In this document: positions 44,706 to 64,000 of the stretch, piece after piece | Layout: every line of letters begins with the position of its first letter | Position numbering within the stretch: the stretch's first letter is position 1 | Origin: Armatimonadota bacterium | Lineage (GTDB): Bacteria > Sysuimicrobiota > Sysuimicrobiia > Sysuimicrobiales > Humicultoraceae | Assembly: GCA_037443365.1 (NCBI GenBank) | Contig: JBBIOM010000007.1 | Location: forward strand, 19,303 to 83,302 | DNA: 64,000 nucleotides | Direction of reading: 5' to 3' | Made by a program: the position numbers and the translations under genes | Notes under the pieces: model-generated | What the model was told of the DNA's origin: nothing | What the model saw: only the letters and a program-made list of their open reading frames with translations | Databases searched by the model: none

Positions 44706-46361
44706 GTGCGCGGAACGCGCGCATGCCTGCTGGAGCCGGAGATGAGAAGCGAGGGCAGGGTGGAATGGTGGCCCCTTCACGTGCGCGCGCTGATCGCGCT
44801 CTTCGGCCTTTCCGTTGTCCTTGTCGGCGTGCCTGCCGGGACCACGGTCAAGTCGCCGCTCACCCTGGCAGCGCTGCTTGTATTGCTGGTCGCCGCGGGC
44901 CTGCCCGGCGCCCTGACGCCTGCCCGTACCGGCGAGTTCCCCCTGGCCCGGCACAGCGGGGTGGCGCTGGAGCTGCTCATTGTGTCCTTCATCGTGTTCG
45001 AGACCGGCGGCGCCACCAGCTTCTTCTACTTCCTGTACGTGCCGGCGCTGATGCTGGCCACGCCTGGGCGCGGGATCGCCATGGGCGCGGTAACTGGCGC
45101 GGCATCCGCGGTCGGCTACGCTGTCGCAGCGGCCGCGCAGGGGGCAGTCGGGACGGTTGTGCTCCCGCGCGCGGCGCTCCTGATCCTGGCCGGGGTTCTG
45201 CTCGGGCTGATCGAGGAACGCCGGCGCGCGAGCGCCGCGCCGCTCGCCCGGGGCTACGAGATGCTTGCGCGCGAGGTCAACGCGGCCGCCGAGCAGCGCG
45301 CGGCCCTGGCGTCAATGGCGCCGCTGGATCTGGCCGGGCGCGCCAGGCAGTTCCTCGAGCGGGCGCTCCGCCTGGCGGATGCGCAGTGGGGCCTTGTGGC
45401 CATGCTGGATGACGACGGGCGTCCGGTCGTGGAAGCCCGCACCGGAACCGATGGGAGGCCCCGGCCCGCAGGCGTTTCCCTCGCGTTGGGCGGTGCGCTG
45501 GCCACCGCGCTCAGGTCAGGCGCTTCCCAGATGGTTCTGGACGCGGACAAGGACGCGGACTGGGTCAGCGTCTTCGGCGAGGATCCCGCGCGCTGCGCGG
45601 TCGTGATCCCGCTCTCGGCGCAGGGCGTACCGTTCGGCGCCCTCGTCCTGGCGCGCGATGGGCCCGGGCCGCTCTCCGACGAGCAGATGGCGGCCGCGCG
45701 AGCCCTGACCGAGATGACGGCCCCCCTGCTGAGGGACGCCCGGGCAGTGGCGCAGTCCAGCGAGTTCCTGCTGAACACGGTGAAGGCGCTGGCCGCGGCC
45801 CTGGAGGCCAAGGACCCCTACACGCTCGGCCACTCGCAGCGCGTTGCGACCTGCGCCGTCGCGATCGCCTCCGACCTGGGGCTTCCCGCGGACGAGATAG
45901 ACCGCATCCGCTGGGCGAGTCTCCTGCACGATATCGGGAAGATCGCGATCCCGGAGCACGTCCTGCGCAAACGCGGCCCCCTGAGCGATGAGGAGCGGGC
46001 GCTGATGAACCAGCACCCGGAGCGCGGGGCCAGCATCATGCGCGACGTGACGCTGTTCAGGCCGCTCGCCGACGACATCCGCTCCCACCAGGAGGCCTAC
46101 GACGGGAGCGGATACCCGGACGGCCTTGTCGGAAACGAGATTCCACTGGGCGCGCGCATCATCCGCGTCGGCGATACCTTTGACGCGGTGACCTCAAACC
46201 GCTCCTACCGGCCGGGCCGTACTGTGGAGCAGGCGATGGCCGAACTCAGCCGAGAGGCCGGTACCACGCTCGATCCGGCGCTGGTGGACGTGTTCCTCCG
46301 CATTCTGCGAGAGAAGCCGCCCTTTGAGATCCAGCTCCGGTTGTGGAGGGAGCGGTCGTAG
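44706..46361 (+). CDS. Membrane-anchored GAF plus HD-GYP domain protein (c-di-GMP phosphodiesterase type)
   Basis: It has N-terminal hydrophobic segments and a central GAF-like region. The HD-GYP region reads HSQRVATCAVAIASDLGL...LLHDIGKIAIPEHVLRKRGPLSDEERALMNQHPERG...HQEAYDGSGYPDGL. The start is uncertain: 44706 or ATG 44742. Confidence 0.88.
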   Translation: MRGTRACLLEPEMRSEGRVEWWPLHVRALIALFGLSVVLVGVPAGTTVKSPLTLAALLVLLVAAGLPGALTPARTGEFPLARHSGVALELLIVSFIVFETGGATSFFYFLYVPALMLATPGRGIAMGAVTGAASAVGYAVAAAAQGAVGTVVLPRAALLILAGVLLGLIEERRRASAAPLARGYEMLAREVNAAAEQRAALASMAPLDLAGRARQFLERALRLADAQWGLVAMLDDDGRPVVEARTGTDGRPRPAGVSLALGGALATALRSGASQMVLDADKDADWVSVFGEDPARCAVVIPLSAQGVPFGALVLARDGPGPLSDEQMAAARALTEMTAPLLRDARAVAQSSEFLLNTVKALAAALEAKDPYTLGHSQRVATCAVAIASDLGLPADEIDRIRWASLLHDIGKIAIPEHVLRKRGPLSDEERALMNQHPERGASIMRDVTLFRPLADDIRSHQEAYDGSGYPDGLVGNEIPLGARIIRVGDTFDAVTSNRSYRPGRTVEQAMAELSREAGTTLDPALVDVFLRILREKPPFEIQLRLWRERS

Positions 46362-46368
46362 CAGGGAC

Positions 46369-47385
46369 TCAGAAGTCGCCGGCCGAGGCGGTAGCGACCG
46401 TCGTGTTGCCCCCGGCACAGGCGCGCACAAGGGCTTCCTCCGCCCGCTCTATGAGCCCCTGGGCGCTCTCGGCGTCCCGGGGGTAGCACGCCAGTCCTAT
46501 GCTGACGGTGGGCGTCAGCGGGTACGGATGCCCGGGGGGGACGAACACCGTGCTCTCGACGGACCTACGGATGCGCTCCGCCAGCGCGAACGCTCCCTCG
46601 AGCGATGTCTCGGGCAGGACCAGCCCAAACCTGCCCGAACCCAGAGAGGCGCGGAGATCAACGAGCCGCGTCTCGGCCGTCAGTACTCCGGAGATGTGCA
46701 CGGCTATGGCCGTGGATGCCTCGCTCCCCAGGGTGCCGCTGATCTCCTCTTCCTGGTCAACCGCGAGCAGGGCCAGGGCGAAGGTGCGCCCGAACCGCTG
46801 GCTCCTGGCCAGTTCGCGCGCGGCGGCAGTCGCGAAGAAGGTCGCGTTGAACAGGCCGGTCTGCGCATCAACGATTATCTGCCTCCGCGCGCGCTCGCGC
46901 AGCTCGTCGAGCCGGCTCTGCTCGGTCAGCCCCCTGCGCGCGCGCTGCCGCTCGTGCCGCTGGATGACCTCGAGGACACCGGCCGATATCAGGCGGTTCA
47001 AGAAATGGACTGCCTCGGCATCCTGGTCGCCGGGGGGCACGGCTCCGGCCAGGAAGTCGAGCACGGCCGGCTTTACGTCCAGGAGGGCCCGGATCACCTC
47101 TTCCAGCGGCGTGTCCAGGGCGAAGGCCTCACCGCTGAGCCTGCCCGCGAACTCAACGAAGGACGACACCTGCCCGGTGCTTGCCGCCTCGGCGAGCGCG
47201 TCCAGCCCGGCCTGGGCATGCCGCTCCAGCCGCTCGTGGTCCTTCCACACCTGCCCACGAGCGGGAGTGAGGGCCATGGCGCGGGCCCAGTGCGTCGCCA
47301 GCATCCGGCGTCGCGTGCGTATGAGCTCAAGGGTGGAGGGGTTCATCGCGGCATCTTGTAGACCTGTTACTATGGCCGAGCGCAA
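46369..47385 (-). CDS. Degenerate GGDEF-domain protein with retained RxxD I-site (candidate c-di-GMP receptor)
   Basis: The C-terminal GGDEF fold reads DAQTGLFNATFF...LLAVDQEEE...TRLVDLRASLGSGRFGLVLPET...TVSIGLA...AEEALVRA. The signature GG(D/E)EF is replaced by GSGRF, while RLVD sits exactly 5 residues upstream. The N-terminal roughly 165 aa form a helical domain of unknown type. The start codon is uncertain. Confidence 0.82.
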   Translation of the reverse strand: MRSAIVTGLQDAAMNPSTLELIRTRRRMLATHWARAMALTPARGQVWKDHERLERHAQAGLDALAEAASTGQVSSFVEFAGRLSGEAFALDTPLEEVIRALLDVKPAVLDFLAGAVPPGDQDAEAVHFLNRLISAGVLEVIQRHERQRARRGLTEQSRLDELRERARRQIIVDAQTGLFNATFFATAAARELARSQRFGRTFALALLAVDQEEEISGTLGSEASTAIAVHISGVLTAETRLVDLRASLGSGRFGLVLPETSLEGAFALAERIRRSVESTVFVPPGHPYPLTPTVSIGLACYPRDAESAQGLIERAEEALVRACAGGNTTVATASAGDF

Positions 47386-47447
47386 ACTCCTTTCGCGCAG
47401 GGAAGGGAGGACCCAGCGGTGAATGCCCCAGACGGCGTCAGGCGACC

Positions 47448-47807
47448 ATGAGCACGAGTCTGAGAGGCATCCTCCAGGGACTTGCAGGCGACGATACGCG
47501 CGCCGTTGTGCTGCTCGACGCCGACGGCCGCGCGATCGAGACGGTCCTCAAGGGCGGCGCCGGCGATCCAGGCATAGTGGCTGGCGACCTGGCCGCGCTG
47601 TTCAAGGTCGGCGCCTACTGCGGCCGCAAGATGGACGGCGGCGAGATCGACTACCTCACCGTGACCACCGAGAGCCTGGCCCTCCTCGTGGTGGCGGTTG
47701 GGCCGGCGCACATCCTGGCGGCGGTGCTCGAGGCGGGCGGCAACATCGCGCGTGCCCGGCTGGCGGTACGCCGGTGCAAGGCCGAGATCATCGAGGCGCT
47801 GGGATGA
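47448..47807 (+). CDS. Roadblock/LC7 (MglB-like) domain protein
   Basis: 119 aa. It reads [25 protein letters not shown]...[43 protein letters not shown], the typical Roadblock/LC7 pattern. Confidence 0.85.
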
Positions 47808-48787
47808 AGCGCGCCCTGATCCTCGCGGCTGCCTGGATCGCCGCGGTCGGGCTCATGCAAGGAGCCGCATACGGCGCCGGGCCTGCCTCCGACCCGCTGC
47901 GCGTCGGCGCGGCGCTGTTTGCGCGGGGCGACCTCGCGGGCGCCGAGGCCGCCTTCGTGCGCGCGGTGGGGCGGCATCCCGGTTCGGCCCACGCGTGGCT
48001 TTGGCTCGGCGTCGTGCAGTTCCACGCGGGCGCCACGGAGCGCTGCGAACAGTCGCTCGCCCGGGCCGCCCGGCTCTCACCGCGCAATGGGATGGTGCTG
48101 CTCTGGTGGGGTCATGCGCTGGTCTTGGTGGGGCGCCCGGTCGAGGCCGCGACCGCCTTTCGGCACGCCGCGATCACCCAGGCGCCCGATGCCGTGCGTG
48201 ATCTGGCCCGTCAGGCGCTGCGGGCGTTGGGGCCGCTCCCACAGCCTGCCGGTCATCCTGCTCCTGACGGCGCGCGATCTCCGACCGCGCCGTCCTGGGT
48301 GACGGATGTTGCCAGCTACGGCGCCATCGCCCGCTTCTACAACTCCGGCCTTACGCACGGGCAGACGGCCGCGATCGGTCAAGCCCTGCTCGGCTACAGC
48401 AGGCACTTCAACGTGGATCCCCGGCTGGTGGTTGCGCTCGTGGTGGTCGAGTCGGGATTCCAGCCGGCGGCGCGCTCCCGGGCGGGCGCGATCGGGCTGG
48501 GACAGCTCATGCCGGACACCGCCCGCGCGATGGGAGTGGACGCTACCGACCCTGTGCAGAATCTCTACGGCACCATCCGGTACCTCCGCGGCAACCTGGA
48601 CCGGTTCGGATGGGACAGGGCGCACCTGGCGCTGGCCGCCTACAACGCGGGCAAAGGCGCCGTGCTGAGGCACAACGGAATCCCTCCGTACGCCGAGACG
48701 CAGTGGTACGTGGCGAACGTGTCCGGACTCTACCGGCGGCTTCTGCAGATTCCCGGTGGGAGTGGGGAGCTATCCGGGCGTCTCTAG
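47804..48787 (+). CDS. Secreted TPR plus SLT-domain lytic transglycosylase
   Basis: ATG 47804 overlaps the Roadblock stop (ATGA). It has a signal peptide, a TPR-like region, and an SLT catalytic region: [27 protein letters not shown]...[10 protein letters not shown]...ALAAYNAG. Confidence 0.85.
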
Positions 48788-48840
48788 GTAAGTTAGGGGG
48801 GGACTAGGCAGAGCCAAGAGCGGGAAAGAAGCAGGTTGCA

Positions 48841-48938
48841 GGCAACCCTCGAACAGGCAAACCCGCCGCGAGGCGGGGACGCAAAGCCAACGGGGCCTGG
48901 AGGCCCGAGTCCGCGGGCTCCGGGCCGGCCGGGTTGCC
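48841..48938 (+). promoter_or_regulatory. c-di-GMP-I (GEMM-I) riboswitch-like aptamer, copy A
   Basis: GGCAACCC-tcgaaca-GGCAAACC-CGCC-GCGA-GGCG-GGGACGCAAAGCC-aaCGGGGCC-tgga-GGCCCG...GCCGGGTTGCC. It has the two conserved GEMM-I cores, a GNRA-capped hairpin between them and an outer 8-bp helix (48841-48848 with 48931-48938). An SD-like AAGGGGAG follows 2 nt later. Confidence 0.78.
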
Positions 48939-49674
48939 GAAGGGGAGACGCTTGGAATCCCTTCGTGTCCAGAGCTTTGAGGCGATTGGGGCTGGGGCGA
49001 TCGTCTTCGCGGGTTTGTGCGGAGACGAGGTGGACCTGGAGCGGCTTGTGGCGCACCTGGCCGCGCGCGGCTTTGACGGCGGCGTGCTCGTGGGCGATGA
49101 GGCGACCGAGGGAGTGCTCTGGTTCCGGGACGGCGCGCCGCGCGAGGCATGGGTGTTCGAGGCGGGCGACATCCCGGAGATGCTGCCCGATGGCCCTGGT
49201 CGCGAGCGCCTGAGTGCACTGGCCTCGCGAGGCTGCCGGATCAGCGTCGTGGCGTGCGAGCCGCCTGACGAGCCGCCGGAACTGGCGGACTGGTCCGACG
49301 CACAGCCCCCCGAGTACGGGACGGCCGCTGAGCCGCCTGCCCACCCGTGGCCCGCGATCCTCGAACGCATGGCGGTGCGCATCGCGCGCAGCCGCGGGCC
49401 CCGCCTGGCGAGCCATTTCGCGGCGGCCCTGGTCAGGGCGCTGGAGCGTCACGGCGGCGGCATGGACGGCGAGCGCGTGCACGCCCCGCAACTGCCCGAG
49501 TCGACTTGGCGCGCGATAGTGGAGGTGGCATGCGCGCCGATAGTGACGATCGCCGGGCGCGCCTTCGCCGACCGGACCATAGCAGCCTGCGAACGCGACG
49601 TGCGCGATGCCGAAGGGATGCCAGAAGCGGTGGCCGAAGGCGAGGGGCCGGCCGAAGGCGAGGGGCCGGCATGA
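48934..49674 (+). CDS. Hypothetical protein (no recognisable family; DUF4388-like flavour in the N-terminal part)
   Basis: 246-aa ORF. TTG 48934 lies inside the riboswitch outer helix, so in-frame TTG 48952, downstream of AAGGGGAG, may be the real start. It reads LERLVAHLAARGFDGGVLVGDEATEGVLWFRDGAPREAWV, and the C-terminus carries a duplicated EGEGPA. Confidence 0.55.
   Translation: MPKGRRLESLRVQSFEAIGAGAIVFAGLCGDEVDLERLVAHLAARGFDGGVLVGDEATEGVLWFRDGAPREAWVFEAGDIPEMLPDGPGRERLSALASRGCRISVVACEPPDEPPELADWSDAQPPEYGTAAEPPAHPWPAILERMAVRIARSRGPRLASHFAAALVRALERHGGGMDGERVHAPQLPESTWRAIVEVACAPIVTIAGRAFADRTIAACERDVRDAEGMPEAVAEGEGPAEGEGPA
49633..49668 (+). repeat. Perfect 2 x 18-bp tandem duplication inside the CDS
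   Basis: GCCGAAGGCGAGGGGCCG occurs twice in a row, encoding AEGEGP AEGEGP at the C-terminus of the 48934 gene. Confidence 0.9.
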
Positions 49675-50423
49675 GGCCGCCCCCCTGGCTGCCCAAGGCG
49701 GTCATCGGCCTCATGGCAGGGGCGGCCGGCATCACCTACGGCCTGGACGGCGGCGGCGCTCACGTGCAGGCGGCGCGGGCCGCGGTCGGGTCAACGCTGC
49801 AACTCCTGGCGCCGCTCGTGGCCGGGTTCGGGTGCCTGATGGCGGCTGCGGCCTATGCGCGTGGTGACCGCGAGCGCGCGGTGTGGGTGATCGCGGCGTG
49901 GGCCACGCTGGCCTGGGCCGCCGGGCGTGCCATCTCCGCGGCCGGACGGTGGGGCGGGGGCGGCGCGGCGTACTCCCCGTCGGCGGCCGACGCGTTCTAT
50001 GTCGCCTTCTTCGTGCTGCTCAGTGCCGCCGTTTGGATGGAGGCCCGGCTTGTCTGGCCCGTGCTGGAACCGCGGATCCGCAGGAATCTGGTCGTGTACG
50101 GCGGTCTGATATGGGGGTCTGTGGTTGTCGCGACGCTGGCATTGCTCGCGCGCGGCGAGGCCCCGGTCTTCCAGAAGATGCTGGCCGCCTTCTACCCTGC
50201 GGCCGCGATGCTGCTCGTACCTGCCTGCCTGGTTCCTGCCGCCGGCTTCAGTGGAGGCACCTCCGCCTACACGTGGCTCACCCTGGCGATGGCTGCGTTG
50301 TGCATGGCCGGGGCGAGTCTCCTGCATCCGATCGTGCACAGGGCCGACGCGCTGTGGGTGGCGGGCTTCATCTTCCTGGCGGCCGGTGCCTTCTGGCAGC
50401 GCGCCGCGCTGGAGGAGGTCTAG
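49671..50423 (+). CDS. Polytopic integral membrane protein, unknown family
   Basis: ATG 49671 overlaps the upstream stop (ATGA). It is about 250 aa with roughly 6-7 hydrophobic segments and has no soluble domain. Confidence 0.6.
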   Translation: MRPPPWLPKAVIGLMAGAAGITYGLDGGGAHVQAARAAVGSTLQLLAPLVAGFGCLMAAAAYARGDRERAVWVIAAWATLAWAAGRAISAAGRWGGGGAAYSPSAADAFYVAFFVLLSAAVWMEARLVWPVLEPRIRRNLVVYGGLIWGSVVVATLALLARGEAPVFQKMLAAFYPAAAMLLVPACLVPAAGFSGGTSAYTWLTLAMAALCMAGASLLHPIVHRADALWVAGFIFLAAGAFWQRAALEEV

Positions 50424-50428
50424 CTGCC

Positions 50429-51169
50429 GTGGCCGCCGCTGGTGTGGCCGGTCTGCTGCACTACGGGTGGACACGGGGCTTTGCCGCCGTGGTCGAGGCG
50501 CCTGCCCGGCGAACCGCGGCGGTCTTCGGTCCTGCTGGCTGGGTGCAGGGCGATCCCTCGTCCGTCCTGCCCGCCGGCGCACCGCCTGGCGCAGAGGTGG
50601 TGCGCCTGGCGCTCACCGAGCGGCTGGCCGATCAGATAGCCGGCCTGCAGTTCTCCATTGGCGGTCTGCACACCGAGTTCGTGCGGCTGCGCTCCTTGTT
50701 GGGACGGCTGTGCGCGCAGGGCGCCGACAGCGTGGTGCTCGTCCTCGGCGAGAGGCCCGCGGTCTTCGCGGTGGCAGACGGCGAGATCACCTCGGCCGGG
50801 CTGGATGCGACACCCCCCGAGGAAGCCCGAGGATGGATCGTGGTCTTCTCCGGCAAGGTCAGCCTGCCCGCGGCCGAGGCCCCGGGTGCTGCCGATGAGA
50901 CCTACTTCGTTCCCAGCAACAGCCGGGACTCACTGCCCGAGGAGGTGGCGACCGCCATCCTGAAGGTGGCCGGGCCCGCGGGCGAACGCGTGCCCGGTCT
51001 GCTCGACGGCACGCGCACGATTGGGGTGGTCGCAGGCATGGCCGGGCTGAGCGCCGGACAGGCGCGCGCAGCCGTGGGCGTGCTGGTCGCGCACCGGCTG
51101 GCCTTCAGGTGCGTCAGCCGCCCCAAGGCCGGCTCGCGTACGAAGCAGGGCAGTTCAGCGCAACCCTGA
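50429..51169 (+). CDS. Hypothetical protein, unknown family
   Basis: GTG 50429 lies 10 nt after GGAGGAGG. It reads LRSLLGRLCAQGADSVVLVLGERPAVFAVADGEITSAG, similar in pattern to the 48934 product. The C-terminal part LLDGTRTIGVVAGMAGLSAGQARAAVGVLVAHRL looks winged-helix-like. Confidence 0.5.
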   Translation: MAAAGVAGLLHYGWTRGFAAVVEAPARRTAAVFGPAGWVQGDPSSVLPAGAPPGAEVVRLALTERLADQIAGLQFSIGGLHTEFVRLRSLLGRLCAQGADSVVLVLGERPAVFAVADGEITSAGLDATPPEEARGWIVVFSGKVSLPAAEAPGAADETYFVPSNSRDSLPEEVATAILKVAGPAGERVPGLLDGTRTIGVVAGMAGLSAGQARAAVGVLVAHRLAFRCVSRPKAGSRTKQGSSAQP

Positions 51170-51250
51170 GGGAGGCCTTGCGCAAATGCCCGTGACGCGC
51201 TATCATTTGCTTCCGCCGGGTCCGGCCACCGGACGCGGAAACCGAATATG

Positions 51251-51336
51251 AACCCCGAAAAGGGCAAACCCATCGTGAGGTGGGGGCGCAAAGCCTCGGG
51301 ACCAGCAGGTGTGGTCAGCCGGGCTGCCGGAGGTTG
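51251..51336 (+). promoter_or_regulatory. c-di-GMP-I (GEMM-I) riboswitch-like aptamer, copy B
   Basis: aaccccgaaaaGGGCAAACC-CATC-GTGA-GGTG-GGGGCGCAAAGCC-tCGGGACC...CAGCCGGGCTGCCGGAGGTT. The architecture matches copy A, with one deviation in the second core (GGGGCGC instead of GGGACGC). A hairpin follows (51344-51351 with 51362-51369, containing CCUCCC) that could act as a weak terminator or as an anti-SD against AGGAGG at 51381-51386. Confidence 0.68.
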
Positions 51337-51394
51337 ACATACCGTCCTCCCAAGGCAGCCCGGGAGGGCTCGTTGTATTCAGGAGGCGTAGCAC

Positions 51395-52210
51395 ATGGCG
51401 GCAAGACCGCCGCAACGCCAGGCAGTGGTGCCGGAGCCCCGCGGCGCAGAGGCCTCCGGCCCCGACGACGCCGACCTGGCGCTTGAGGAATACGCCGCCA
51501 CGCGCAGCCCGCAGGCGCAGGAGCGCGTCGTCGCCGCCTGCACGCCACTGGTGCGGCGCATCGCCGCCGAGTTCGCGTACTCGGGAGTCCCGACCGAGGA
51601 TCTGATCCAGGTGGGCTACATCGGGCTGCTCAACGCCATCAACGGGTTCGACGCGGGCCGCGGCGCGAAGTTCGCCACCTACGCCGGCTACCTCGTACGC
51701 GGCGAGATCCGTCACTACCTGCGCGACCAGCGGGACACGATCCGCAGACCGCGCTGGTTTCAGAGGCTCAACACCCGCATCGAGGAGACCATCAGCGCGC
51801 ACGTCAGCGAGACCGGGCGCTTCCCCGGTCTCGACGTCCTGGCGCGCGCTCTCAACGTGGAGGAGGAGGGGCTCCTGGAGGTCCTGCGCGCAAGGGAGAT
51901 CCTTCGCACGGTCTCCATCGAGGCCGACGACGATGGGGCCGACCTCCGCGTTGATCGCGACCGGATACGGCACCGCACGCACGTCAGCTTCCAGCTTCCG
52001 ATCGAGGACCGCGTCACGCTGATGGAGGCGCTGGAGTCGCTCACCGCGCTGCAGCGCAAGGTCGTTTACTACCTTTTCTACACCGACCTTACACAGATGG
52101 AGGCCGCCAAACAGATCGGCATCTCGCAGAAGCACGTGTCGCGCGTGCTTGCCGCCGCGCTGAACAAGCTGCGCGGCGCGCTGGGCGCGCCGTCGCACGG
52201 GGCTCTGTAG
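51395..52210 (+). CDS. Group-3 sigma-70 family factor (SigB/SigF/SigG-like)
   Basis: Region 2 reads DLIQVGYIGLLNAINGFDAGRGAKFATYAGYLVRGEIRHYLRD. Region 4 reads LQRKVVYYLFYTDLTQMEAAKQIGISQKHVSRVLAAALNKLR. AGGAGG lies 9 nt upstream of the ATG. Confidence 0.9.
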   Translation: MAARPPQRQAVVPEPRGAEASGPDDADLALEEYAATRSPQAQERVVAACTPLVRRIAAEFAYSGVPTEDLIQVGYIGLLNAINGFDAGRGAKFATYAGYLVRGEIRHYLRDQRDTIRRPRWFQRLNTRIEETISAHVSETGRFPGLDVLARALNVEEEGLLEVLRAREILRTVSIEADDDGADLRVDRDRIRHRTHVSFQLPIEDRVTLMEALESLTALQRKVVYYLFYTDLTQMEAAKQIGISQKHVSRVLAAALNKLRGALGAPSHGAL

Positions 52211-52229
52211 GATAGGGGAGGAATCCGGG

Positions 52230-52586
52230 ATGTCGCAGTTGAAGGACTTGCTCGCCGAACTGACCAGGGTTGACGGCGTGGTGGCGGCCATGATCGTGGG
52301 CCGTGACGGGTTCGTCGTGGAGGGCCTGACGACGGAGGAGCGGGTGGACCTCGAGGCGGTCGGCGCGGTCGTGGCCAGCAACATAGCGGTGGCCGACTCG
52401 ATGGGCAAGGAGATGGGCCGCGGCTCGCTGCGCACGATGCTGCTGGAGTACGACGAGGGCCCGGTGGCCGTCGGGCCGGCCGGGGCCGACGCCGTCATCG
52501 TCGTGGTGGGTACGCGGCTGGCCAACCTGGGGCGCGTCCGCCTCGAGATGCGGCGCAACAGCCAACTCGCGGCCGCGCTGGTCTAG
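52230..52586 (+). CDS. Roadblock/LC7 (MglB-like) domain protein
   Basis: 118 aa. It reads LAELTRVDGVVAAMIVGRDGFVVEGL...LRTMLLEYDEGPVAVGPAGADAVIVVVGTRLANLGRVRLEM and begins 19 nt after the sigma gene. Confidence 0.85.
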   Translation: MSQLKDLLAELTRVDGVVAAMIVGRDGFVVEGLTTEERVDLEAVGAVVASNIAVADSMGKEMGRGSLRTMLLEYDEGPVAVGPAGADAVIVVVGTRLANLGRVRLEMRRNSQLAAALV

Positions 52587-52681
52587 ATGGTCCCGGCCCC
52601 GCCTGCTTCCCGCAATGTTCCCGGGACTAGCCCGGAACCCTTCGGGGAACATACCCACCGCAGAATCATCTCTGGAGGAGC

Positions 52682-53702: not shown

Positions 53703-53725
53703 GCGCGGGCAAGGGGTGAGAAGAG

Positions 53726-55816: not shown

Positions 55817-56244
55817 GCCGCCGCCGCTCGCAGGAAGGCTTCGGCCTGCTCGAGACGGTCGTCGTGGCGGTGCTGGTCGTCATCCTGCTGACGATGGGGA
55901 TGTCGAGCTGGCGGGGGCACGTGGCGCAGCAGCGCCTGCGCTACGGCGCGGCCCAGGTGGCCTCGGACCTACGCCTGGCCCACGAGCGCGCCAAGGCCGA
56001 GCGCACCCCGTACACGGTCTCCTTCTCGGCCTCGTCGGGGTCCTACGCGATCGCGCGCACGAGCGGGGGGTTTCTCGAGAACGCCATGTTGCCCGACGGG
56101 GTAACCGTGGCCGAGACACTCGTCATCACTTTCTCGGCCTTCGGCGCCCCGGGCGCCGAGTGTACGCTCACCGTGGGCAATGCCGCGGGGACGGCCACGG
56201 TGACGGTGAGCGAGGCAGGCGGCGTGATCTACCAGGAGAACTGA
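55813..56244 (+). CDS. Prepilin-type protein (GspH/FimT-like minor pilin)
   Basis: The TTG start at 55813 overlaps the upstream stop (TTGA). It reads G|FGLLETVVVAVLVVILLT (Glu +5), and QRLRYGAAQVASDLRLAHERA is typical of GspH/FimT. Confidence 0.75.
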   Translation: MSRRRSQEGFGLLETVVVAVLVVILLTMGMSSWRGHVAQQRLRYGAAQVASDLRLAHERAKAERTPYTVSFSASSGSYAIARTSGGFLENAMLPDGVTVAETLVITFSAFGAPGAECTLTVGNAAGTATVTVSEAGGVIYQEN

Positions 56245-56251
56245 CCGCGGC

Positions 56252-58460
<2,209 letters not shown>

Positions 58461-58465
<5 letters not shown>

Positions 58466-58540
58466 CCCAGCCAGCCGGGGGCTTCCACCACCGGCCCTGT
58501 GGCTTTGCGTCCCCGGATCGCTCCGGGTTTGCCCTTACGG
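58461..58540 (-). promoter_or_regulatory. c-di-GMP-I (GEMM-I) riboswitch-like aptamer, copy C
   Basis: The minus strand reads ccgtaaGGGCAAACC-CGGA-GCGA-TCCG-GGGACGCAAAGCC-aCAGGGCCGG...GGCTGGGTTGCC. The 3' conserved GGGTTGCC (58468-58461) overlaps the first candidate start codon (TTG 58465) of the TPR-PilB gene. Confidence 0.76.
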
Positions 58541-58658
58541 GACTAGTGCACTAAACTTCTGGGTATACTCTAACTTGCCCCTGCAGAGATTGCACCGAGG
58601 GTATCACGGAGCGCGGCTTGGCGCAAGGCCATATTGAGAGGAGTTCCGGGGAGGAATC

Positions 58659-60236
58659 ATGGAGACTTACCAGATGGAGACGCGCCTGCTCTCCGGCCTC
58701 ATCCGAGACCGGCACCTGCTCACGCTGGCGGTCAACGAGGGGTTCCACGTCGACCAGCTCGTATCGCCGCAGGCGCGGCGCCTGGCGAAGGTCACCATTG
58801 ACGCGCACGCGATGACGCCGATCCTCGACGAGGCCACGCTGCGGGCCGAGATGACCGATCGCGGTCTCCTGACCCCTGAGATGGAGCAGTACCTGGCGTC
58901 GGTGCTGCTGCTCCCGCCGCCCAACGCCGGGGACCTTCTTGGCTACGTTGAGGAGCTGAAGGCCCGGGAGAGCCGCGACCTCCTGGCGCGCGTCCACGAA
59001 TCCATCGGGGGCTATCTATACCGCCGTACCCCAGAGCAGGCGGACATCGTGCAGTTCACCACCGACGCGATCCATAATCTGCTCGAGATCCAGCGGCGCA
59101 GGACGCGCCGCCAGGTGGCGCCCATCTCCGAGACGTTCGGCCCGATGATTGACGCCCGGCCCCAGGCGACGAACGGCATCCTGGGCTTCTCGATCAGCCC
59201 GTTTGACCGTCTCAACACCCTGCTCTCGGGTTTGCGGCGGGGCTTCTACTACGGCCTGGCCGGTGCTCCCCGCCGCGGCAAGACCAACTTCGCCCTCGAC
59301 CTGGCCGTGCACGTGGCCGCCAACCACAAGGTGCCGGTGCTGTTCTACACCTGGGAGCAGACCCGCCGCGTGCTGGCGGCCCGCCTGATCGCCAAGGAGG
59401 TGGGCATCAACCCCACCTCGATCCTGGTGGGGAGCAACGGGGACGGCGAGTCCGTGGCCGAGAAGGTGAACGAGGCCCGCGGGCCGCTGGGGCGCTACGC
59501 GCCGTTCCTGTACCTGGTGGAGGCGGGCCGCAAGGAGACGCTCGACCGCATCCGCGCCCACGCCCACAACCTGATGCAGGAGTTCCAGACCACGGACGTG
59601 GTGCTGTTCTTCGACTACCTGCAGAAGATCCCGCTGTCGGCCTACGTGGACGACTGGAAGGCCCGGACCGACATGGTCTCCACCGCGCTGGCCGAGCTGA
59701 GCCTCGAGCTCAACTGCCCGGTCTTCGCGATCTCGCCCCTGGACAAGGAGGGCTGCCGGCTGGACGAGCGGCCGGCCGAGGAGACCGAGATCTTCAACCC
59801 GTTCAACCGGCCCACGATGCACCACAGCATGGGCAGCGGCGATCTCGAGTACGACCTCGACGTCGCCATGGTCCTGGCCAAGGACTGGAAGGCCACGGCC
59901 GACCTGCGGCAGTTGATCGAGTCGCGGGCCAAGGCCGAGGGCTTCGACACCAGCGATCTGCCCAGGGTGGACATCCTCAACCTGTTCGTGGACAAGAACC
60001 GCGACGCGCCAGAGGCGGCCTCCAACATAGTGCAGTACGCGTTCTTCGTGACCCTGAACAAGCTGGTGGAACTGGACTACAAGATGGAGCAGGAGTATCG
60101 CCCCGACTACCAGGGCTTCTCCAAACTCCAGGAGATCTACACGTTCCTGCGCGACCACGGGTTCCGCCCGCAGCGCGAGGCGCCCGCCGCCGCGCGCGTC
60201 GGAGGCGTGGGGGGAGCCGGAGGGAGAAGCCGATGA
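58659..60236 (+). CDS. Diverged DnaB-like protein (DnaB-type N-terminal domain plus RecA-fold ATPase)
   Basis: The N-terminus METRLLSGLIRDRHLLTLAVNEGFHVDQLVSPQARRLAKVTID resembles the DnaB N-domain. Walker A is GLAGAPRRGKTNFALDLA (59262-59285). The Walker B/DnaB box is VVLFFDYLQKI, and it also has PVFAISPL and GSGDLEYDLDVAMVL. A strong SD (GGGGAGGAA) precedes the ATG. Confidence 0.72.
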   Translation: METYQMETRLLSGLIRDRHLLTLAVNEGFHVDQLVSPQARRLAKVTIDAHAMTPILDEATLRAEMTDRGLLTPEMEQYLASVLLLPPPNAGDLLGYVEELKARESRDLLARVHESIGGYLYRRTPEQADIVQFTTDAIHNLLEIQRRRTRRQVAPISETFGPMIDARPQATNGILGFSISPFDRLNTLLSGLRRGFYYGLAGAPRRGKTNFALDLAVHVAANHKVPVLFYTWEQTRRVLAARLIAKEVGINPTSILVGSNGDGESVAEKVNEARGPLGRYAPFLYLVEAGRKETLDRIRAHAHNLMQEFQTTDVVLFFDYLQKIPLSAYVDDWKARTDMVSTALAELSLELNCPVFAISPLDKEGCRLDERPAEETEIFNPFNRPTMHHSMGSGDLEYDLDVAMVLAKDWKATADLRQLIESRAKAEGFDTSDLPRVDILNLFVDKNRDAPEAASNIVQYAFFVTLNKLVELDYKMEQEYRPDYQGFSKLQEIYTFLRDHGFRPQREAPAAARVGGVGGAGGRSR

Positions 60237-60511
60237 TCGTGGACAAGCGCGCGCCCATCTACCCCATTCGCACGGTGGCGCACCTCACCGGCGTGAACCC
60301 CAGGCGCATCCGCGCCTGGGAGGACCAGTACAACCTGTTCGTCCCGGCGCGCACAGGGGGAGGGCACCGGCTCTACAGCGAAGAGGATGTGGAACGCATA
60401 CGGTGGGTCAAGGCGATGGTGGAGCGTGGGGTGAGCCTGCGGGGCATTCAGCGGCTGGTGGAGCGCCCCCGCGCAGTCGAGACGGTCGCCGAGGGAAGGG
60501 GTGCCCGATGA
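60233..60511 (+). CDS. Small MerR-family HTH regulator
   Basis: It reads IYPIRTVAHLTGVNPRRIRAWEDQYNLFVPARTGGGHRLYSEEDVERIRWVKAMVERGVSLRGI. The start overlaps the upstream stop (ATGA). Confidence 0.85.
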   Translation: MIVDKRAPIYPIRTVAHLTGVNPRRIRAWEDQYNLFVPARTGGGHRLYSEEDVERIRWVKAMVERGVSLRGIQRLVERPRAVETVAEGRGAR

Positions 60512-60750
60512 AGGTGGAGCTGGACCGCGAGCAGGTCGTGATCTTCACGCCGTCACACAGGATCGAGGGCGAGCTGCACCTGCCCTCGAGCGCCCGGCTC
60601 TCCGACCGGCTGAACCAGGCCAAGGACTTCCTGGCCATTACCTCGGCGCGCGTCTTCACCCTGGACGACCGTCCGCTCTACGAGGCCGGCGTCGTGTTTC
60701 TGCACAAGTCCTACATCGTGATGCTTATGGAGCGTCATGAGGCCATCTAG
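60508..60750 (+). CDS. 80-aa hypothetical protein, unknown family
   Basis: It reads MKVELDREQVVIFTPSHRIEGELHLPSSARLSDRLNQAKDFLAITSARVFTLDDRPLYEAGVVFLHKSYIVMLMERHEAI. It has an ATGA overlap with merR-like and a 14-nt overlap with pilB. The pattern looks beta-rich. Confidence 0.5.
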   Translation: MKVELDREQVVIFTPSHRIEGELHLPSSARLSDRLNQAKDFLAITSARVFTLDDRPLYEAGVVFLHKSYIVMLMERHEAI

Positions 60751-62446
60751 GAGCCCGACCTCGCGTCGCCGGGTGCGGCTCGGCGAGATCCTGGTGGAGG
60801 CCGGGCTGATCACGAGCGCCCAGCTCGAGAAGGCGCTGTCGGCACAGAACGCCAGCGGCGACCGCCTGGGCAGGGTGCTGGTGAGCCAGGGGCTGACCAC
60901 GCAGGAGGCCATCAGCAAGGCCGTGGCCAGCCAGATGGGAATCGAGTACGTCAACGTGCAGTCCGTAGGGATCCCCGAGGAGGTGCTCACGGCCGTTCCC
61001 GAGTGGCTGATACGGCGCCACCAGGTCATCCCGCTGCGCAGGGAAGGGAACACGCTCGTCGTGGGGATGGTGGACCCCCTCGACGTGGTGGCGCTCGATA
61101 CGGTCCGGCGCGTCGCCAAGCTCGACCTGGTACCGGCCGCGATCACGCCCGAGGGGTTCCAGCACGCCGTCAACCAGTACCCGGCCCTGGAGGGCACCCT
61201 GGACCAGGTCATCCAGGAGATCCGCCCCGCGGACGTGGGCGAGGAGGAGCCGGGCCTCGATCGGCTGCGCGAGATAGTCGAGGACGCCCCGGTCGTGCGC
61301 CTGGTGAACCTGATGCTGGTTCAGGCGGTGCGCCAGGGCGCCAGCGATGTGCACGTGGAGCCGCAGGAGGACCGCGTTCGCATACGCTACCGCATTGACG
61401 GCACGCTCTACGGCGTCATGACCGCGCCCAAGCACGTGCAGGCCGCGACCACGAGCCGCATCAAGATCATGGCCAACATGAACATCGCCGAGCGCCGCGC
61501 GCCGCAGGACGGGCGGATCGAACTGCGCGTGGACAACCGCGAGATTGACCTGCGCGTCAGCAGCGTCCCCACCGTGTTCGGCGAGAAGGTGGTCATGCGG
61601 ATCCTCGACAAGCGGGCGGCGCTGGTCGGCGTGGACAGGCTCGGCCTGTTGGGGCCGGACCTGCCGCGATTCGAGTCGCTGATCGCCAAGCCTTACGGCA
61701 TCATCCTCATCACCGGCCCGACCGGCAGCGGCAAGACCACCAGCCTGTACGCCATCCTCAACCGGCTGAACAAGACCGACGTCAACATAATCACGGTCGA
61801 GGACCCGGTGGAGTACCAGCTCGCCGGCATCAGCCAGGTCCAGATCAACCCCAAGGCCGGTCTGACCTTCGCCACCGGTTTGCGGTCTTTCCTGAGGCAG
61901 GACCCGGATATTATCATGGTGGGGGAGATACGCGACGAGGAGACCGCGCGCATCGCGATCCACGCCGCGCTGACCGGGCACTTGGTCCTCTCGACGCTGC
62001 ACACCAACGACGCGCCCGGCGCCGTGGCTCGCCTCGCGGACATGGGCGTGGAGCCGTTCCTGGTCTCCTCTTCGGTGATCGGCGTGGTCGCGCAGCGCCT
62101 GGTGCGCGTGCTCTGCCCGCAGTGCCGCGAGGCGTACACGCCTCCGGTCGAGGTGCTGGAGCGCTACCGGCTCATAGGCCCCGGCGACCCGCCGCCCGTG
62201 ATCTACCGTCCGCGGGGCTGCGACCGGTGCAACCACATCGGATACAAGGGGCGCATCGGGCTCTTCGAGATCATGGTCATGGACGATGAAGTGCGCGCGC
62301 TCGTCGTGCGGGAGTCCTCGGCGGATGTGCTCAAGGCCGCCGCCGTCGCCGCCGGGATGCGCACGCTGCACCTGGACGGCGTGGCCAAGGTGCTGGCCGG
62401 GACGACGTCGCTCGAAGAACTGCTCCGAGTCGTTTTCGTCGAATAG
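60737..62446 (+). CDS. pilB: Type IV pilus assembly ATPase PilB (GspE family) with intact MshEN-type motifs
   Basis: It has tandem RLGEILVEAGLITSAQLEKALSAQ and RLGRVLVSQGLTTQEAISKAVASQ, a T2SSE_N region and ILITGPTGSGKTTSL (Walker A). It also has FLRQDPDIIMVGEIRD and a tetracysteine motif (CPQCR...CDRCNHIGY). Confidence 0.93.
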   Translation: MRPSRSPTSRRRVRLGEILVEAGLITSAQLEKALSAQNASGDRLGRVLVSQGLTTQEAISKAVASQMGIEYVNVQSVGIPEEVLTAVPEWLIRRHQVIPLRREGNTLVVGMVDPLDVVALDTVRRVAKLDLVPAAITPEGFQHAVNQYPALEGTLDQVIQEIRPADVGEEEPGLDRLREIVEDAPVVRLVNLMLVQAVRQGASDVHVEPQEDRVRIRYRIDGTLYGVMTAPKHVQAATTSRIKIMANMNIAERRAPQDGRIELRVDNREIDLRVSSVPTVFGEKVVMRILDKRAALVGVDRLGLLGPDLPRFESLIAKPYGIILITGPTGSGKTTSLYAILNRLNKTDVNIITVEDPVEYQLAGISQVQINPKAGLTFATGLRSFLRQDPDIIMVGEIRDEETARIAIHAALTGHLVLSTLHTNDAPGAVARLADMGVEPFLVSSSVIGVVAQRLVRVLCPQCREAYTPPVEVLERYRLIGPGDPPPVIYRPRGCDRCNHIGYKGRIGLFEIMVMDDEVRALVVRESSADVLKAAAVAAGMRTLHLDGVAKVLAGTTSLEELLRVVFVE

Positions 62447-62455
62447 GGGGCTGCC

Positions 62456-63637
62456 ATGCACATCGAAGACCTGCTGCGAGAGGTCGTCGCGGCCCAGGCG
62501 TCGGACCTGCACCTGACGAGTGGGATCAAGCCCACGATGCGGCTTTGGGGCCGGCTGACGCCGATGGAGCACCACGAGGTCCTCTCGGCCGAGGACACCT
62601 TCCAGCTCGGCTACAGCATGCTCAACACCTTCCAGAAGCAGAAGTTCGAGAAGTTCTGGGAACTCGATCTTTCCTACGGCGTGCCCGGGCTGGGACGCTT
62701 CCGGGTGAACATCTACCGCCAGCGCGGGGCGCTGGGGATCGCGCTCCGGGTCATCCCCATGTCGATCCCGACGCTCGAGGCGCTCAACCTGCCCACCGTC
62801 CTGAGGGAACTCACGCGCAAGCCCCGGGGGCTGGTGCTGGTGACCGGGCCCACCGGACAGGGCAAGAGCACGACGCTGGCCTCGATGATAAGCTTCATCA
62901 ACTACGAGCGCAGCGCCCACATCGTGACGGTGGAGGACCCGATCGAGTACCTGCACCAGCACGGCAAGAGCATCATCAACCAGCGCGAGCTGGGGTTCGA
63001 CACGCAGTCGTTCCCGGCGGCGCTGCGCGCGGTGCTGCGCGAGGACCCCAACGTCGTGCTGATCGGCGAGATGCGCGACCTCGAGACGATCTCGGCGGCG
63101 CTCACGATCGCCGAGACCGGCCACCTGGTCTTCGCCACCCTGCACACGGCCAACGCCGCGCAGTCGATAGACCGCATCATTGACGTCTTTCCGCCCTACC
63201 AGCAGCAGCAGATCCGCATCCAGATCTCCATGGTGCTCGAGGCCGTGGTGTCGCAGCAACTGCTCCCCAACGCGAAGTACAAGGGGAATGCTGACGCACA
63301 GCCGGCGGCGCGCAAGCGCCTGGGGGGCGCCGTCGGGCAGTCCTGGCCGAGCCTGGACGAGATAGGGCGGGTGCCCGCGGTCGAGATCATGCTGGCCACG
63401 CCCGCCATCCGCAACCTGGTACGCGAGGCCAAGACGCACCAGATCGAGACGGCAATACAGACGGGCGGGCAGTACGGCATGCAGACGATGGACCAATCGC
63501 TGCGCGATCTCGTCCTGCGCAAGATGGTGAGGTTGGACGACGCGCTCAGCCGGGCCATCCGCCCCGATGAACTGCGCAAGATACTGTACGAGGCCGGCGT
63601 TGACGTCGAGCGCGCCGCTCGTAGCGCGAGGGGGTAG
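62456..63637 (+). CDS. pilT: Twitching-motility retraction ATPase PilT (with an internal insertion)
   Basis: It has ASDLHLTSGIKPTMRLWG, GLVLVTGPTGQGKSTTL, VLREDPNVVLIGEMRD, GHLVFATLHT and AIRNLVRE. It is 393 aa, with about 26 extra residues between QQLLP and GRVPAVEIM. Confidence 0.92.
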   Translation: MHIEDLLREVVAAQASDLHLTSGIKPTMRLWGRLTPMEHHEVLSAEDTFQLGYSMLNTFQKQKFEKFWELDLSYGVPGLGRFRVNIYRQRGALGIALRVIPMSIPTLEALNLPTVLRELTRKPRGLVLVTGPTGQGKSTTLASMISFINYERSAHIVTVEDPIEYLHQHGKSIINQRELGFDTQSFPAALRAVLREDPNVVLIGEMRDLETISAALTIAETGHLVFATLHTANAAQSIDRIIDVFPPYQQQQIRIQISMVLEAVVSQQLLPNAKYKGNADAQPAARKRLGGAVGQSWPSLDEIGRVPAVEIMLATPAIRNLVREAKTHQIETAIQTGGQYGMQTMDQSLRDLVLRKMVRLDDALSRAIRPDELRKILYEAGVDVERAARSARG

Positions 63638-63645
63638 GCGCCGCC

Positions 63646-64000
63646 ATGGCAGTATTCCGGTACAGCGCCAAGGACAACAGCGGGCGCCTGATCTCGGGCG
63701 TCATAGAGGCCGACAACGACGCCATGGTCGTGGACCGGCTCCGCGACATGGGCTTCTTCATCACGCACCTGGAGCGCGTGGTCGAGCGCGCGGACGTCTT
63801 CCAGTCGCTGCAGTCCATGTTCGGCATAGCGCTGAGGGACCTGGCGGTATTCAGCCGGCAGTTCGCCACGATGGTGAACTCCGGGCTGTCGCTGGTGCGC
63901 ACGCTCACGATCCTGGAGCAGCAGTCCAGCAACAAGCGCCTGAGGGAGATCGTCGCCGGGGTGCGCGCCGACGTCGAGGCCGGCCGTCCGCTCTCGGACG
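63646..64000 (+). CDS. pilC: Type IV pilus platform protein PilC (GspF family), 5' part only
   Basis: It reads MAVFRYSAKDNSGRLISGVIEADNDAMVVDRLRDMGFFITHLE...LAVFSRQFATMVNSGLSLVRTLTIL and runs off the end of the window. Confidence 0.88.
   Translation, partial: MAVFRYSAKDNSGRLISGVIEADNDAMVVDRLRDMGFFITHLERVVERADVFQSLQSMFGIALRDLAVFSRQFATMVNSGLSLVRTLTILEQQSSNKRLREIVAGVRADVEAGRPLSD

Follow-up and report, generated by a model that had tools for sequence, protein, structure and literature searches.

The window analysed here is the whole 64,000-nucleotide stretch of contig JBBIOM010000007.1 (69% G+C), the last 19 kb of which, from position 44,706 onward, hold a cluster of type IV pilus genes interspersed with three aptamers of the class I cyclic di-GMP (c-di-GMP) riboswitch. 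Genes were mapped from third-position GC content, Pfam and NCBIfam matches and deposited gene calls; the 3′ part of the window is identical to contig CAZTQE010000010.1 of a metagenome-assembled genome (MAG GCA_964615245.1). Each aptamer leads a unit: the three orphan genes hypA-memB-hypC; a sigma factor gene followed by a Roadblock/LC7 gene and four minor pilin genes; and, on the opposite strand, the gene for PilB_TPR, one of two PilB-family extension ATPases. An operon without an aptamer, encoding a DnaB-like ATPase, a MerR-type protein, a DUF6812 protein, PilB2, PilT and PilC, runs to the end of the window, and genes for an HD-GYP protein and a degenerate GGDEF protein flank the cluster. A first-pass annotation, made from the sequence without database searches, had counted the pilus and accessory genes as riboswitch-regulated. 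Gene positions bear this out for the three units just named but not for the SLT lytic transglycosylase gene, which lies upstream of the first aptamer, nor for the DnaB-like-to-PilC operon. We read the locus, with a probability of about 70%, as a type IVa-like module for pilus motor and priming functions that is conserved in bacteria of the CSP1-3/Sysuimicrobiota type and the expression of which is predicted to be gated by canonical c-di-GMP-I riboswitches.

The first aptamer, RS1 (48,846–48,941, plus strand), lies in the leader of hypA-memB-hypC and matches Rfam model RF01051 at 51.1 bits, against a gathering score of 35 (E = 5e-7). RS2 (51,254–51,332, plus strand), in the leader of the sigma operon, and RS3 (58,457–58,542, minus strand), which abuts the PilB_TPR start codon, match RF03167 at 70 bits (E = 1.5e-14) and 59.3 bits (E = 1.9e-11), respectively. 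All three lie above the Rfam gathering score, with E-values calculated for the whole 64-kb window, in agreement with the three c-di-GMP-I leaders proposed in the first-pass annotation; Rfam models found no further c-di-GMP aptamer in the other 45 kb. That RF03167 (c-di-GMP-I-GGC) is the top-scoring Rfam model at 51,254 and 58,457 would fit a reading of RS2 and RS3 as 'GGC' variants sensing a ligand other than c-di-GMP, the meaning of 'GGC' being taken from the model consensus, GACGC-G-AA. RS2 and RS3 read GCGC-A-AA and ACGC-A-AA at this site, with A instead of the consensus G, as do all the aptamers that we aligned; the G that precedes GC-AAA is kept as well, as is the C of UGCC, and RF01051 matches both sites too, hidden in the output as the lower-scoring clan member. 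We consider a different ligand very improbable.

All 31 aligned aptamers, from the window and its relatives, have a G preceding GC-AAA, the CGCAAA stretch and the C in UGCC. We take this G, the A after (A/G)CGC and this C to be the counterparts of Vc2 G20, A47 and C92, which presumably set ligand specificity, as in the Vc2 structures. Because the G20-, A47- and C92-equivalent bases are invariant, we assign the window aptamers to canonical class I, with c-di-GMP as the predicted ligand. The fold is similarly well preserved, and covariation supports its two helices: 97.4% of cells are paired and nine pairs show double-sided changes. None of 500 shuffles reached the observed score, and slid controls were only 20–51% paired.

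To place the locus among its relatives, we used two independent anchor genes. A profile of the DnaB-like protein, run against one-genome-per-species contigs, gave 198 relatives, of which 80 loci (numbered, like all sampled loci, with the prefix L) were taken and their gene neighbourhoods mapped by tblastn; a profile of the second Roadblock protein, run against metagenome contigs, gave more than 386 relatives, of which again 80 loci were taken, 30 of them with Roadblock identity of at least 47%. NCBI labels of the relatives include Armatimonadota, Candidatus Fervidifonticultor, Nitrosymbiomonas and Sysuimicrobiota, and the genus Fervidifonticultor belongs to candidate phylum CSP1-3, that is, Sysuimicrobiota (PMC11604079). 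More than 50 loci from the two anchors keep the neighbourhood. With the first anchor, pilB/pilT/pilC genes stand beside the DnaB-like gene in 36 of 80 loci, and these are all the loci with DnaB-like identity of at least 55%. Three arrangements occur: PilB_TPR reversed and followed by DnaB-like-MerR-DUF6812-PilB2-PilT-PilC, as in the window; PilB_TPR on the same strand and continuing into DnaB-like-PilB2-PilT-PilC; and PilB_TPR reversed and followed by DnaB-like-PilT-PilC. Loci with enough flank also hold hypA-memB-hypC-sigma-Roadblock, and the minor-pilin cassette is found in some loci only (the window, L004, L024 and L063).

With the second anchor, a SigB/F-like sigma gene precedes Roadblock in 25 of 25 loci that reach far enough upstream, the other five of the 30 contigs ending earlier, and a MerR gene stands between sigma and Roadblock in the more distant clades. 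Two of these loci (L105, L116) are fully co-directional, with one aptamer followed by sigma, MerR, one or more Roadblock genes, PilB_TPR, in one case the DnaB-like gene, PilB2, PilT and PilC; L138 has the same order up to its end at PilB2. The leaders of L137 and L141 fall outside the sampled loci, which begin within sigma or behind it. L116, L137 and L141 have no DnaB-like gene, and on this comparison we class that gene as an optional insert. The recurrent core, as judged from gene order, comprises the aptamer, sigma, Roadblock, MerR (not always), PilB_TPR, PilB2, PilT and PilC. The first-pass annotation had grouped these genes as a unit, and the recurrence of sigma-Roadblock and the pilBTC core in relatives drawn from both anchors supports that grouping. 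In the window's lineage, the reversed PilB_TPR gene with an RS3 of its own is compatible with c-di-GMP control having been kept after an inversion.

The aptamers recur with these genes. In the genome-collection loci, window excluded, RS2 is present in 13 of 13 covered loci, RS1 in 7 of 7, and RS3 in 12 of ∼22, with one degenerate copy in addition. In the metagenome loci, searched with our own covariance model, an aptamer lies directly upstream of sigma in 19 of 23 intact leaders; where it is missing (L100–L102 and L104), the nearby PilB gene is missing too.

The regions 3′ of the aptamers suggest how they might act. For RS2, minimum free energy (MFE) folds and comparison of orthologues delimit an expression platform (51,318–51,386, plus strand) in which a stretch complementary to the 3′ half of the aptamer is accompanied by a weak hairpin, its U-rich tail and the Shine-Dalgarno sequence AGGAGG. 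All RS2 orthologues have a GC-rich hairpin of 6–16 pairs (−22 to −35 kcal/mol) 3′ of the aptamer, followed by a U-rich tail; in L024, for example, the terminator is CCUCUUGGGG-CAG-CCCCAGGAGG with UUUUUU after it. The aptamer's 3′ strand (GGGCUGCC) has its complement in the hairpin's 5′ arm and loop (GGCAGCCC), and distant co-directional clusters show the same layout of terminator and aptamer. For RS1, the terminator in seven aligned relatives is GCCUUUCGGCC...GGCCGAAAGGC, followed by UUUU. In the eight-sequence alignment, 94% of this helix and 90% of the alternative helix with the aptamer tail are paired, compared to 29–63% for slid controls. RS3 differs among relatives: the window and the four relatives closest to it have the start codon directly at the aptamer's 3′ end, while seven other relatives have a terminator instead. 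Since the competitor of the terminator is the aptamer's own 3′ half, ligand binding would free the terminator, and the platforms (of RS2 in all relatives read, and of the RS1- and RS3-type leaders of relatives) probably specify OFF switches. A scan for promoter and terminator consensus sequences was uninformative, with 7 terminator-like sites against 5.9 expected by chance.

Several observations weigh against the gating of this module by OFF riboswitches. The RS2 hairpin of the window itself is weak, with six pairs, and here the alternative would be masking of the Shine-Dalgarno sequence AGGAGG by a CCUCC element. The RS1 terminator of the window has lost its 3′ arm, which leaves the aptamer directly next to a Shine-Dalgarno sequence, GGGGAG, and the TTG start codon at 48,952. 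RS3 is absent from ∼40% of close relatives, and no gene for a major pilin, PilD or PilMNOPQ is found in the 44.7–64 kb part of the window. In several orthologues, the terminator is the MFE fold even with the aptamer's 3′ half free. Class I riboswitches are also known as ON switches elsewhere, examples being B. thuringiensis Bc2 and one V. cholerae case (PMC6366702). Finally, OFF riboswitches combined with c-di-GMP binding by the motor ATPases (see below) amount to a puzzling opposite-sign logic. If the switches were instead ON, high c-di-GMP would switch on the pilus genes and stimulate the PilB ATPases as well, giving a 'sessile/adhesive pilus' programme like that of C. difficile pilA1, and the sign would be coherent with MshEN activation and the scheme simpler. 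The terminator folds and the class I ON examples speak for this possibility. Two features argue the other way: the 5′ part of the terminator complements the aptamer's 3′ half without overlapping it, which is the standard OFF layout, and the PilB_TPR start codon lies directly at the 3′ end of RS3. On balance, we think an ON sign unlikely.

A second potential c-di-GMP input lies in the motor proteins. PilB2 (60,737–62,446, plus strand; T2SSE, E = 2e-142) carries a canonical MshEN tandem, consisting of RLGEILVEAGLITSAQLEKALSAQ (residues 14–37), a 5-residue spacer and RLGRVLVSQGLTTQEAISKAVASQ (residues 43–66); both RLG...Q motifs and both arginines are kept in all close orthologues. PilB_TPR (56,252–58,456, minus strand) has a TPR-linker-MshEN-PilB architecture (T2SSE, E = 8e-146; MshEN, E = 2e-23; TPR repeats), and its GTG start at 58,456 aligns with the ATG of relatives. 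The first-pass annotation had assigned N-terminal MshEN-type 24-mers to both ATPases. Tandem motifs are present in both, but those of PilB_TPR are internal (177–200 and 206–229), and the first begins with Pro instead of Arg. True orthologues have T, P, A or S at this position, with the hydrophobic positions intact; a few rows of the orthologue alignment, being paralogues or pick-ups of the second motif, were not counted. In characterized MshEN domains, hydrophobic residues dominate c-di-GMP binding, and changing Arg9 shifts affinity by no more than ∼5-fold (PMC5013675). For this reason, binding is plausible for the N-domains of both PilB2 and PilB_TPR. The predicted OFF sign of the riboswitches runs counter to the usual picture in which c-di-GMP activates MshE/PilB, and the control layers may thus oppose rather than reinforce each other.

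The remaining pilus components are largely familiar. PilT (62,456–63,637, plus strand) scores 464.7 bits against a cutoff of 319 for TIGR01420 (pilT_fam), and PilC (63,646–64,000, plus strand; T2SSF, E = 2e-10) is cut by the window end, its full length being 405 residues in L001. In relative L082, unrelated genes follow PilC, and a single 148-residue pilin is encoded 3.5 kb further on. The sigma operon ends in four pilin-like genes with class III signal sequences, all on the plus strand. Two encode minor pilin-like proteins, with prepilin signals G|FTYLE (52,682–53,125; N_methyl, E = 0.008) and G|VTLIE (53,091–53,702; N_methyl, E = 2e-5). The third (53,726–55,816) encodes a large DUF4900 protein of 696 residues (E = 1.4e-13), the pilin-like N-terminus of which lacks E+5 and which is likely a tip subunit of the GspK/PilX type. 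The fourth encodes a GspH/FimU-like minor pilin of 143 residues (55,813–56,244; G|FGLLE; GspH, E = 1.8e-4; N_methyl, E = 0.004). To judge from these features, the four would fit an H/I/J/K priming set. Pfam and NCBIfam thus bear out the prepilin-type proteins, PilB, PilT, PilC and SLT of the first-pass annotation. It had called the filament locus atypical, which is true of the accessory genes; with its PilB, PilT, PilC and minor pilins, the pilus core does not depart from the usual type IVa-like set.

Among the accessory genes, the sigma factor (51,395–52,210, plus strand) has Pfam regions r2, r3 and r4 and is closest to the SigB/SigF/SigG family, yet it stays below the family cutoff (TIGR02980, 172.6 bits against 234). 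No HATPase anti-sigma kinase or STAS gene of SigB-type partner switching is found in the cluster. Instead, sigma is followed by Roadblock/LC7 protein 2 (118 residues; 52,230–52,586, plus strand; Robl_LC7, E = 4e-16), as in every locus with a detected sigma gene, with MerR between the two in some. Roadblock/LC7 protein 1 (119 residues; 47,448–47,807, plus strand) matches the same Pfam family with E = 3e-5, its 24.1 bits lying just above the cutoff of 23. The end of its gene overlaps the start of the gene for the TPR and SLT lytic transglycosylase (47,804–48,787, plus strand; SLT, E = 2e-21), and L083 has the same 119-residue gene ahead of SLT. The transglycosylase is 327 residues long, as in the gene calls for L001 (329 in L083), and not 454 as first annotated. 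An MglA/MglB module is not indicated: the MglB model gave 34.7 bits against a cutoff of 200, and no MglA-like match was found in the window or in 81 loci. Three loci (L107, L115 and L116) have tandem Roadblock genes between MerR and PilB_TPR. By analogy with these tandem genes, the window's two Roadblock proteins, encoded 4.4 kb apart, may form a heterodimer. In metagenome loci L108–L164, Roadblock relatives at 40–43% identity occur without a sigma gene or riboswitch, consistently with a PilB-core-like P-loop ATPase gene 2.3–2.9 kb downstream; these probably represent a different Roadblock-associated system.

The three genes behind RS1 are orphans, all on the plus strand. HypA (240 residues from TTG 48,952; 48,952–49,674) shares the N-terminus ME[ST]LR[VI]QS with its L004 counterpart and has no Pfam or NCBIfam family. 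MemB (250 residues; 49,671–50,423) reads as a polytopic membrane protein and is conserved beside hypA and hypC. HypC (246 residues; 50,429–51,169), for which 16 homologues were found, has a winged-helix-like C-terminal region and an AlphaFold2 (AF2) model with a predicted local distance difference test (pLDDT) score of 78.8. In a Foldseek search of the PDB, this model had no match (best E = 5e-3, template-modelling score ∼0.1), and hypC orthologues give weak HTH_47 matches in a Pfam search run at E up to 10. HypA and hypC had each been candidates for the second Roadblock protein, but profile–profile comparison with the Roadblock alignment gave a probability below 1%, and hypC orthologues showed only the weak helix-turn-helix matches; the true second Roadblock gene is the 119-residue one at 47,448–47,807. 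Five relatives (L006, L009, L010, L015 and L083) have two genes for periplasmic solute-binding proteins between RS1 and hypA; in L083 these are called as Peripla_BP_6 and NMT1_3. These extra genes, which the window lacks, would also be under RS1.

A further accessory gene encodes a DnaB-family paralogue of 525 residues (58,659–60,236, plus strand; DnaB_C, E = 4e-24), the first gene of the motor operon. It is followed by genes for a small MerR-type helix-turn-helix protein (92 residues; 60,233–60,511, plus strand; MerR_1, E = 5e-22), which has 4-nucleotide overlaps with its neighbours, and for an orphan DUF6812 protein (80 residues; 60,508–60,750, plus strand), assigned from precomputed Pfam data and with 21 orthologues sharing the pattern HRIEG...SDRLN...FLPIT. 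From the DnaB-like gene to PilB2, consecutive genes overlap by 4–14 nucleotides. The DnaB-like protein aligns end to end with DnaB models at a low score, and its AF2 model (pLDDT 72.5) matches full-length DnaB in Foldseek (E = 1e-15, 475–490 aligned columns). The Walker A lysine K208, the catalytic glutamate E233, the Walker B aspartate D319 and the arginine finger R448 are invariant in the family. Two further features of this family were seen: its most conserved stretch (residues 362–400, DKEGCRLDE...RPTMHHSxGSGDLEYD) is modelled with pLDDT below 50, and the 'SQLSR' motif of DnaB is replaced by 'SPLDK'. Searches thus agreed with the first-pass annotation on a group-3 sigma factor, a DnaB-like ATPase, a MerR protein, two Roadblock proteins and several orphans.

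What might such an ATPase do in a pilus operon? RadA and ComM act in transformation and provide precedents for DNA processing, and one possibility is that the cluster encodes a DNA-uptake (competence) pilus, with the DnaB-family ring helicase processing or translocating incoming DNA in a similar way. The full DnaB architecture with its invariant catalytic residues is consistent with this idea, as is the tight packing with pilB/pilT/pilC in three gene arrangements. The TIGR00665 score for replicative DnaB, 115.2 bits, is far below the cutoff of 385, and for this reason we regard the protein as a specialised paralogue, which would also suit a role in uptake. However, no comEA, comEC or dprA gene lies nearby, the DnaB-like gene is missing from three equivalent clusters (the optional-insert cases above), and more distant members of the family (<52% identity), which occur in Acidobacteriota, Desulfomonilaceae and other groups, have unrelated housekeeping surroundings, with genes for a metallophosphoesterase, enolase, hemA, a dynamin-like protein and others and no common theme. 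A DNA-uptake function therefore appears doubtful.

Some observations on the surroundings of DnaB-like genes can be added. A SigB-type promoter (GGGTAT) upstream of the window's DnaB-like operon was considered and rejected: the motif nearest the gene is not conserved, and the other copy belongs to the conserved promoter region of RS3, read on the reverse strand. In L029–L034 and L060, the conserved element TGGAACGAAACTTGCT, found ∼60–80 nucleotides upstream of the DnaB-like gene, fits the −24/−12 pattern of sigma-54 promoters; it heads the DnaB-like-PilT-PilC operon in Sysuimicrobiota-type loci, and the window's clade lacks it. Three of these loci also have an aptamer of the c-di-GMP-I clan just at the gathering score (L030, 3959–4041; L031, 3957–4039; L060, 3932–4014), for which the best model in L060 is RF03168 'UAU'. 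No plausible gene lies downstream on the same strand in these three, the neighbouring real genes being on the opposite strand. More c-di-GMP aptamers occur near non-pilus DnaB-like genes (L037, 3796–3901, minus strand; L040, 3284–3460, minus strand; L045, 810–887; L053, 1–51). In L037 and L040, the aptamer is followed by an HD-GYP homologue in the same orientation, a hint that a phosphodiesterase may be under riboswitch feedback. The Limnocylindrales MAG L052 has two fluoride riboswitches near its DnaB-like gene (14,573–14,634 and 17,749–17,817).

At the left edge of the cluster lie the two proteins that might set or read the c-di-GMP level. A GAF and HD-GYP protein with transmembrane segments (44,706–46,361, plus strand; HD_5, E = 3e-42; GAF_2, E = 9e-11) is a putative c-di-GMP phosphodiesterase; its HD motif at residue 408 and GYP motif at 469 substantiate the HD-GYP domain already annotated. 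The usual HHE is replaced by HQE in the window and in two orthologues, so catalytic competence is uncertain. On the minus strand follows a degenerate GGDEF protein (46,369–47,385; GGDEF, E = 2e-19), a putative c-di-GMP receptor, in which RLVD (240–243) and GSGRF (249–253) are separated by five residues, just as the first-pass annotation had it. The orthologue start corresponds to Met at 47,346, and the family comprises ∼50 orthologues, after which scores drop sharply. In 14 orthologues, R240, D243, R252 and F253 are invariant and the motif is G-x-(G/T)-R-F; both acidic residues are gone, and the GG(D/E)EF cyclase motif is thus lost. PelD and PopA are degenerate GGDEF proteins that bind c-di-GMP via an RxxD I-site, likewise with the acidic residues lost and RxxD five residues upstream. 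An invariant RxxD without the catalytic acids is the signature of an I-site receptor, and we predict binding here as well. The N-terminal domain differs from those of PelD and PopA and has a weak RsbRD_N match (E = 0.003). This stretch (residues 20–111) is curious beside the nearby SigB/F-like sigma.

The tie between these two genes and the pilus module is one of synteny, and a functional link is accordingly only putative. L014 and L083 keep HD-GYP, GGDEF, Roadblock 1 and SLT in synteny, with GGDEF identities of 48–57%. Left of HD-GYP lie housekeeping genes (HAD, YceG, DUF1292, RuvX, AlaRS and an Opp transporter), and the left-flank synteny reaches alaS-ruvX-DUF1292-yceG-HAD equally, so that the adjacency of HD-GYP and GGDEF could simply be inherited, a further point against our reading of the cluster. 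The HD-GYP, GGDEF and DnaB-like genes might then all be neighbours by descent only, with no functional tie to the pilus module. That HD-GYP and GGDEF accompany the cluster in only these two relatives, with GGDEF and SLT in two more metagenome loci, would agree with this, as would the dispensability of the DnaB-like gene in some clusters. Against it, those two metagenome loci (L088 and L089), where GGDEF and SLT again stand beside the cluster, were sampled independently, and through rearrangements the DnaB-like gene continues to overlap pilus genes or to lie directly against them. We rate descent alone as a real though lesser possibility. Further upstream, the window contains three tRNA genes (6949–7022, 17,777–17,849 and 29,041–29,115) and a GroEL-type chaperonin gene (29,208–30,863, minus strand).

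Under the riboswitch-gated pilus module that we favour, bound c-di-GMP would make each aptamer hold its own 3′ half, allowing the downstream terminator to form, and in the PilB_TPR leader of the window the bound aptamer would bury the start codon. Expression of the sigma factor, priming pilins and PilB_TPR would then cease at high c-di-GMP and resume at low c-di-GMP, a state that the HD-GYP enzyme would favour. As c-di-GMP may also bind the PilB N-domains directly, one signal would act on both synthesis and motor activity, and sigma with its Roadblock partner(s) would probably relay it to further genes. The first-pass annotation had likewise suggested that all layers read the same second messenger. 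This is supported by the conserved aptamer bases, PilB2 MshEN motifs and GGDEF I-site; it is less secure for HD-GYP and GGDEF, tied in by synteny, and it omitted the predicted OFF sign.

Known systems offer parallels for several of these elements. In C. difficile, class I riboswitches work as terminating OFF switches; one of them, Cd1, a class I aptamer with an intrinsic terminator, lies before the flgB operon, which contains sigD (PMC6366702). There, as is predicted here, c-di-GMP acts through a class I aptamer and terminator on an alternative sigma factor along with a motility apparatus; here, by contrast, sigma is the first gene after the aptamer, SigB/F-like rather than FliA-like, paired with Roadblock and associated with type IV pilus genes rather than flagellar genes. 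Cdi-2-4, a class II ON riboswitch before the major pilin gene pilA1 of C. difficile (PMC6366702), resembles the present leaders in that a c-di-GMP riboswitch acts directly on type IV pilus genes, but the latter are class I, predicted OFF, and precede minor pilins, a PilB and a sigma factor. V. cholerae MshE and T. thermophilus PilF have tandem RLGxxLLxxGLLxxxxLxxxLxxQ motifs with a 5-residue spacer before the T2SSE ATPase (PMC5013675). The window PilBs share the two 24-residue motifs, spacer and ATPase, and are predicted to bind similarly; they differ in that each locus has two paralogues, one with an N-terminal TPR domain, a long linker and a non-Arg first residue.

The archaellum protein ArlH (FlaH) is a RecA/KaiC-like ATPase encoded beside ArlI-ArlJ. 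A RecA-fold ring ATPase gene directly upstream of genes for a PilB/PilT-type ATPase and a PilC-type platform, seen in the DnaB-like-PilT-PilC order of L029–L034 and L060, recalls this arrangement. At 525 residues, the present protein has both DnaB domains and is a full homologue, not a single-domain KaiC-like protein, and the comparison is an analogy only. A speculative scheme would make the DnaB-family helicase a dedicated third pilus ATPase, for DNA uptake or for docking on the motor ATPases as ArlH does, combined with a riboswitch controlling a SigB/F-type sigma that is partnered by a Roadblock dimer in place of an anti-sigma/STAS pair; we would not put much weight on it.

Each control layer thus has a precedent: a class I OFF riboswitch acting on a sigma factor via its operon, a riboswitch before pilus genes, MshEN ATPases and I-site receptors. 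New in combination are the riboswitch directly ahead of a SigB/F-like sigma-Roadblock pair, the three paralogous aptamers within 10 kb, the TPR-fused PilB, and the DnaB paralogue with MerR and DUF6812 inside a motor operon. A literature search found no description of this gene combination in Armatimonadota or Sysuimicrobiota, nor a described counterpart of the riboswitch-sigma-Roadblock trio that recurs in metagenomes, and the genomic description of Sysuimicrobiota does not mention pili or c-di-GMP (PMC11604079).

Control of type IV pili by c-di-GMP is well studied in a few model bacteria; for the CSP1-3/Sysuimicrobiota, a widespread lineage without cultivated members, it is so far undescribed. 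Here it would take the form of a compact, conserved module in which one class of RNA sensor gates a sigma factor, priming pilins and one of two extension ATPases, both of which carry a protein-level sensor of their own. Its accessory features, sigma-Roadblock and the DnaB-like ATPase, merit experiments, and for the latter, a widely conserved orphan paralogue, gene context suggests where a function might be sought. If the predicted OFF sign is true, the module would be a natural case of a single messenger controlling synthesis and activity of the same machine with opposite signs.

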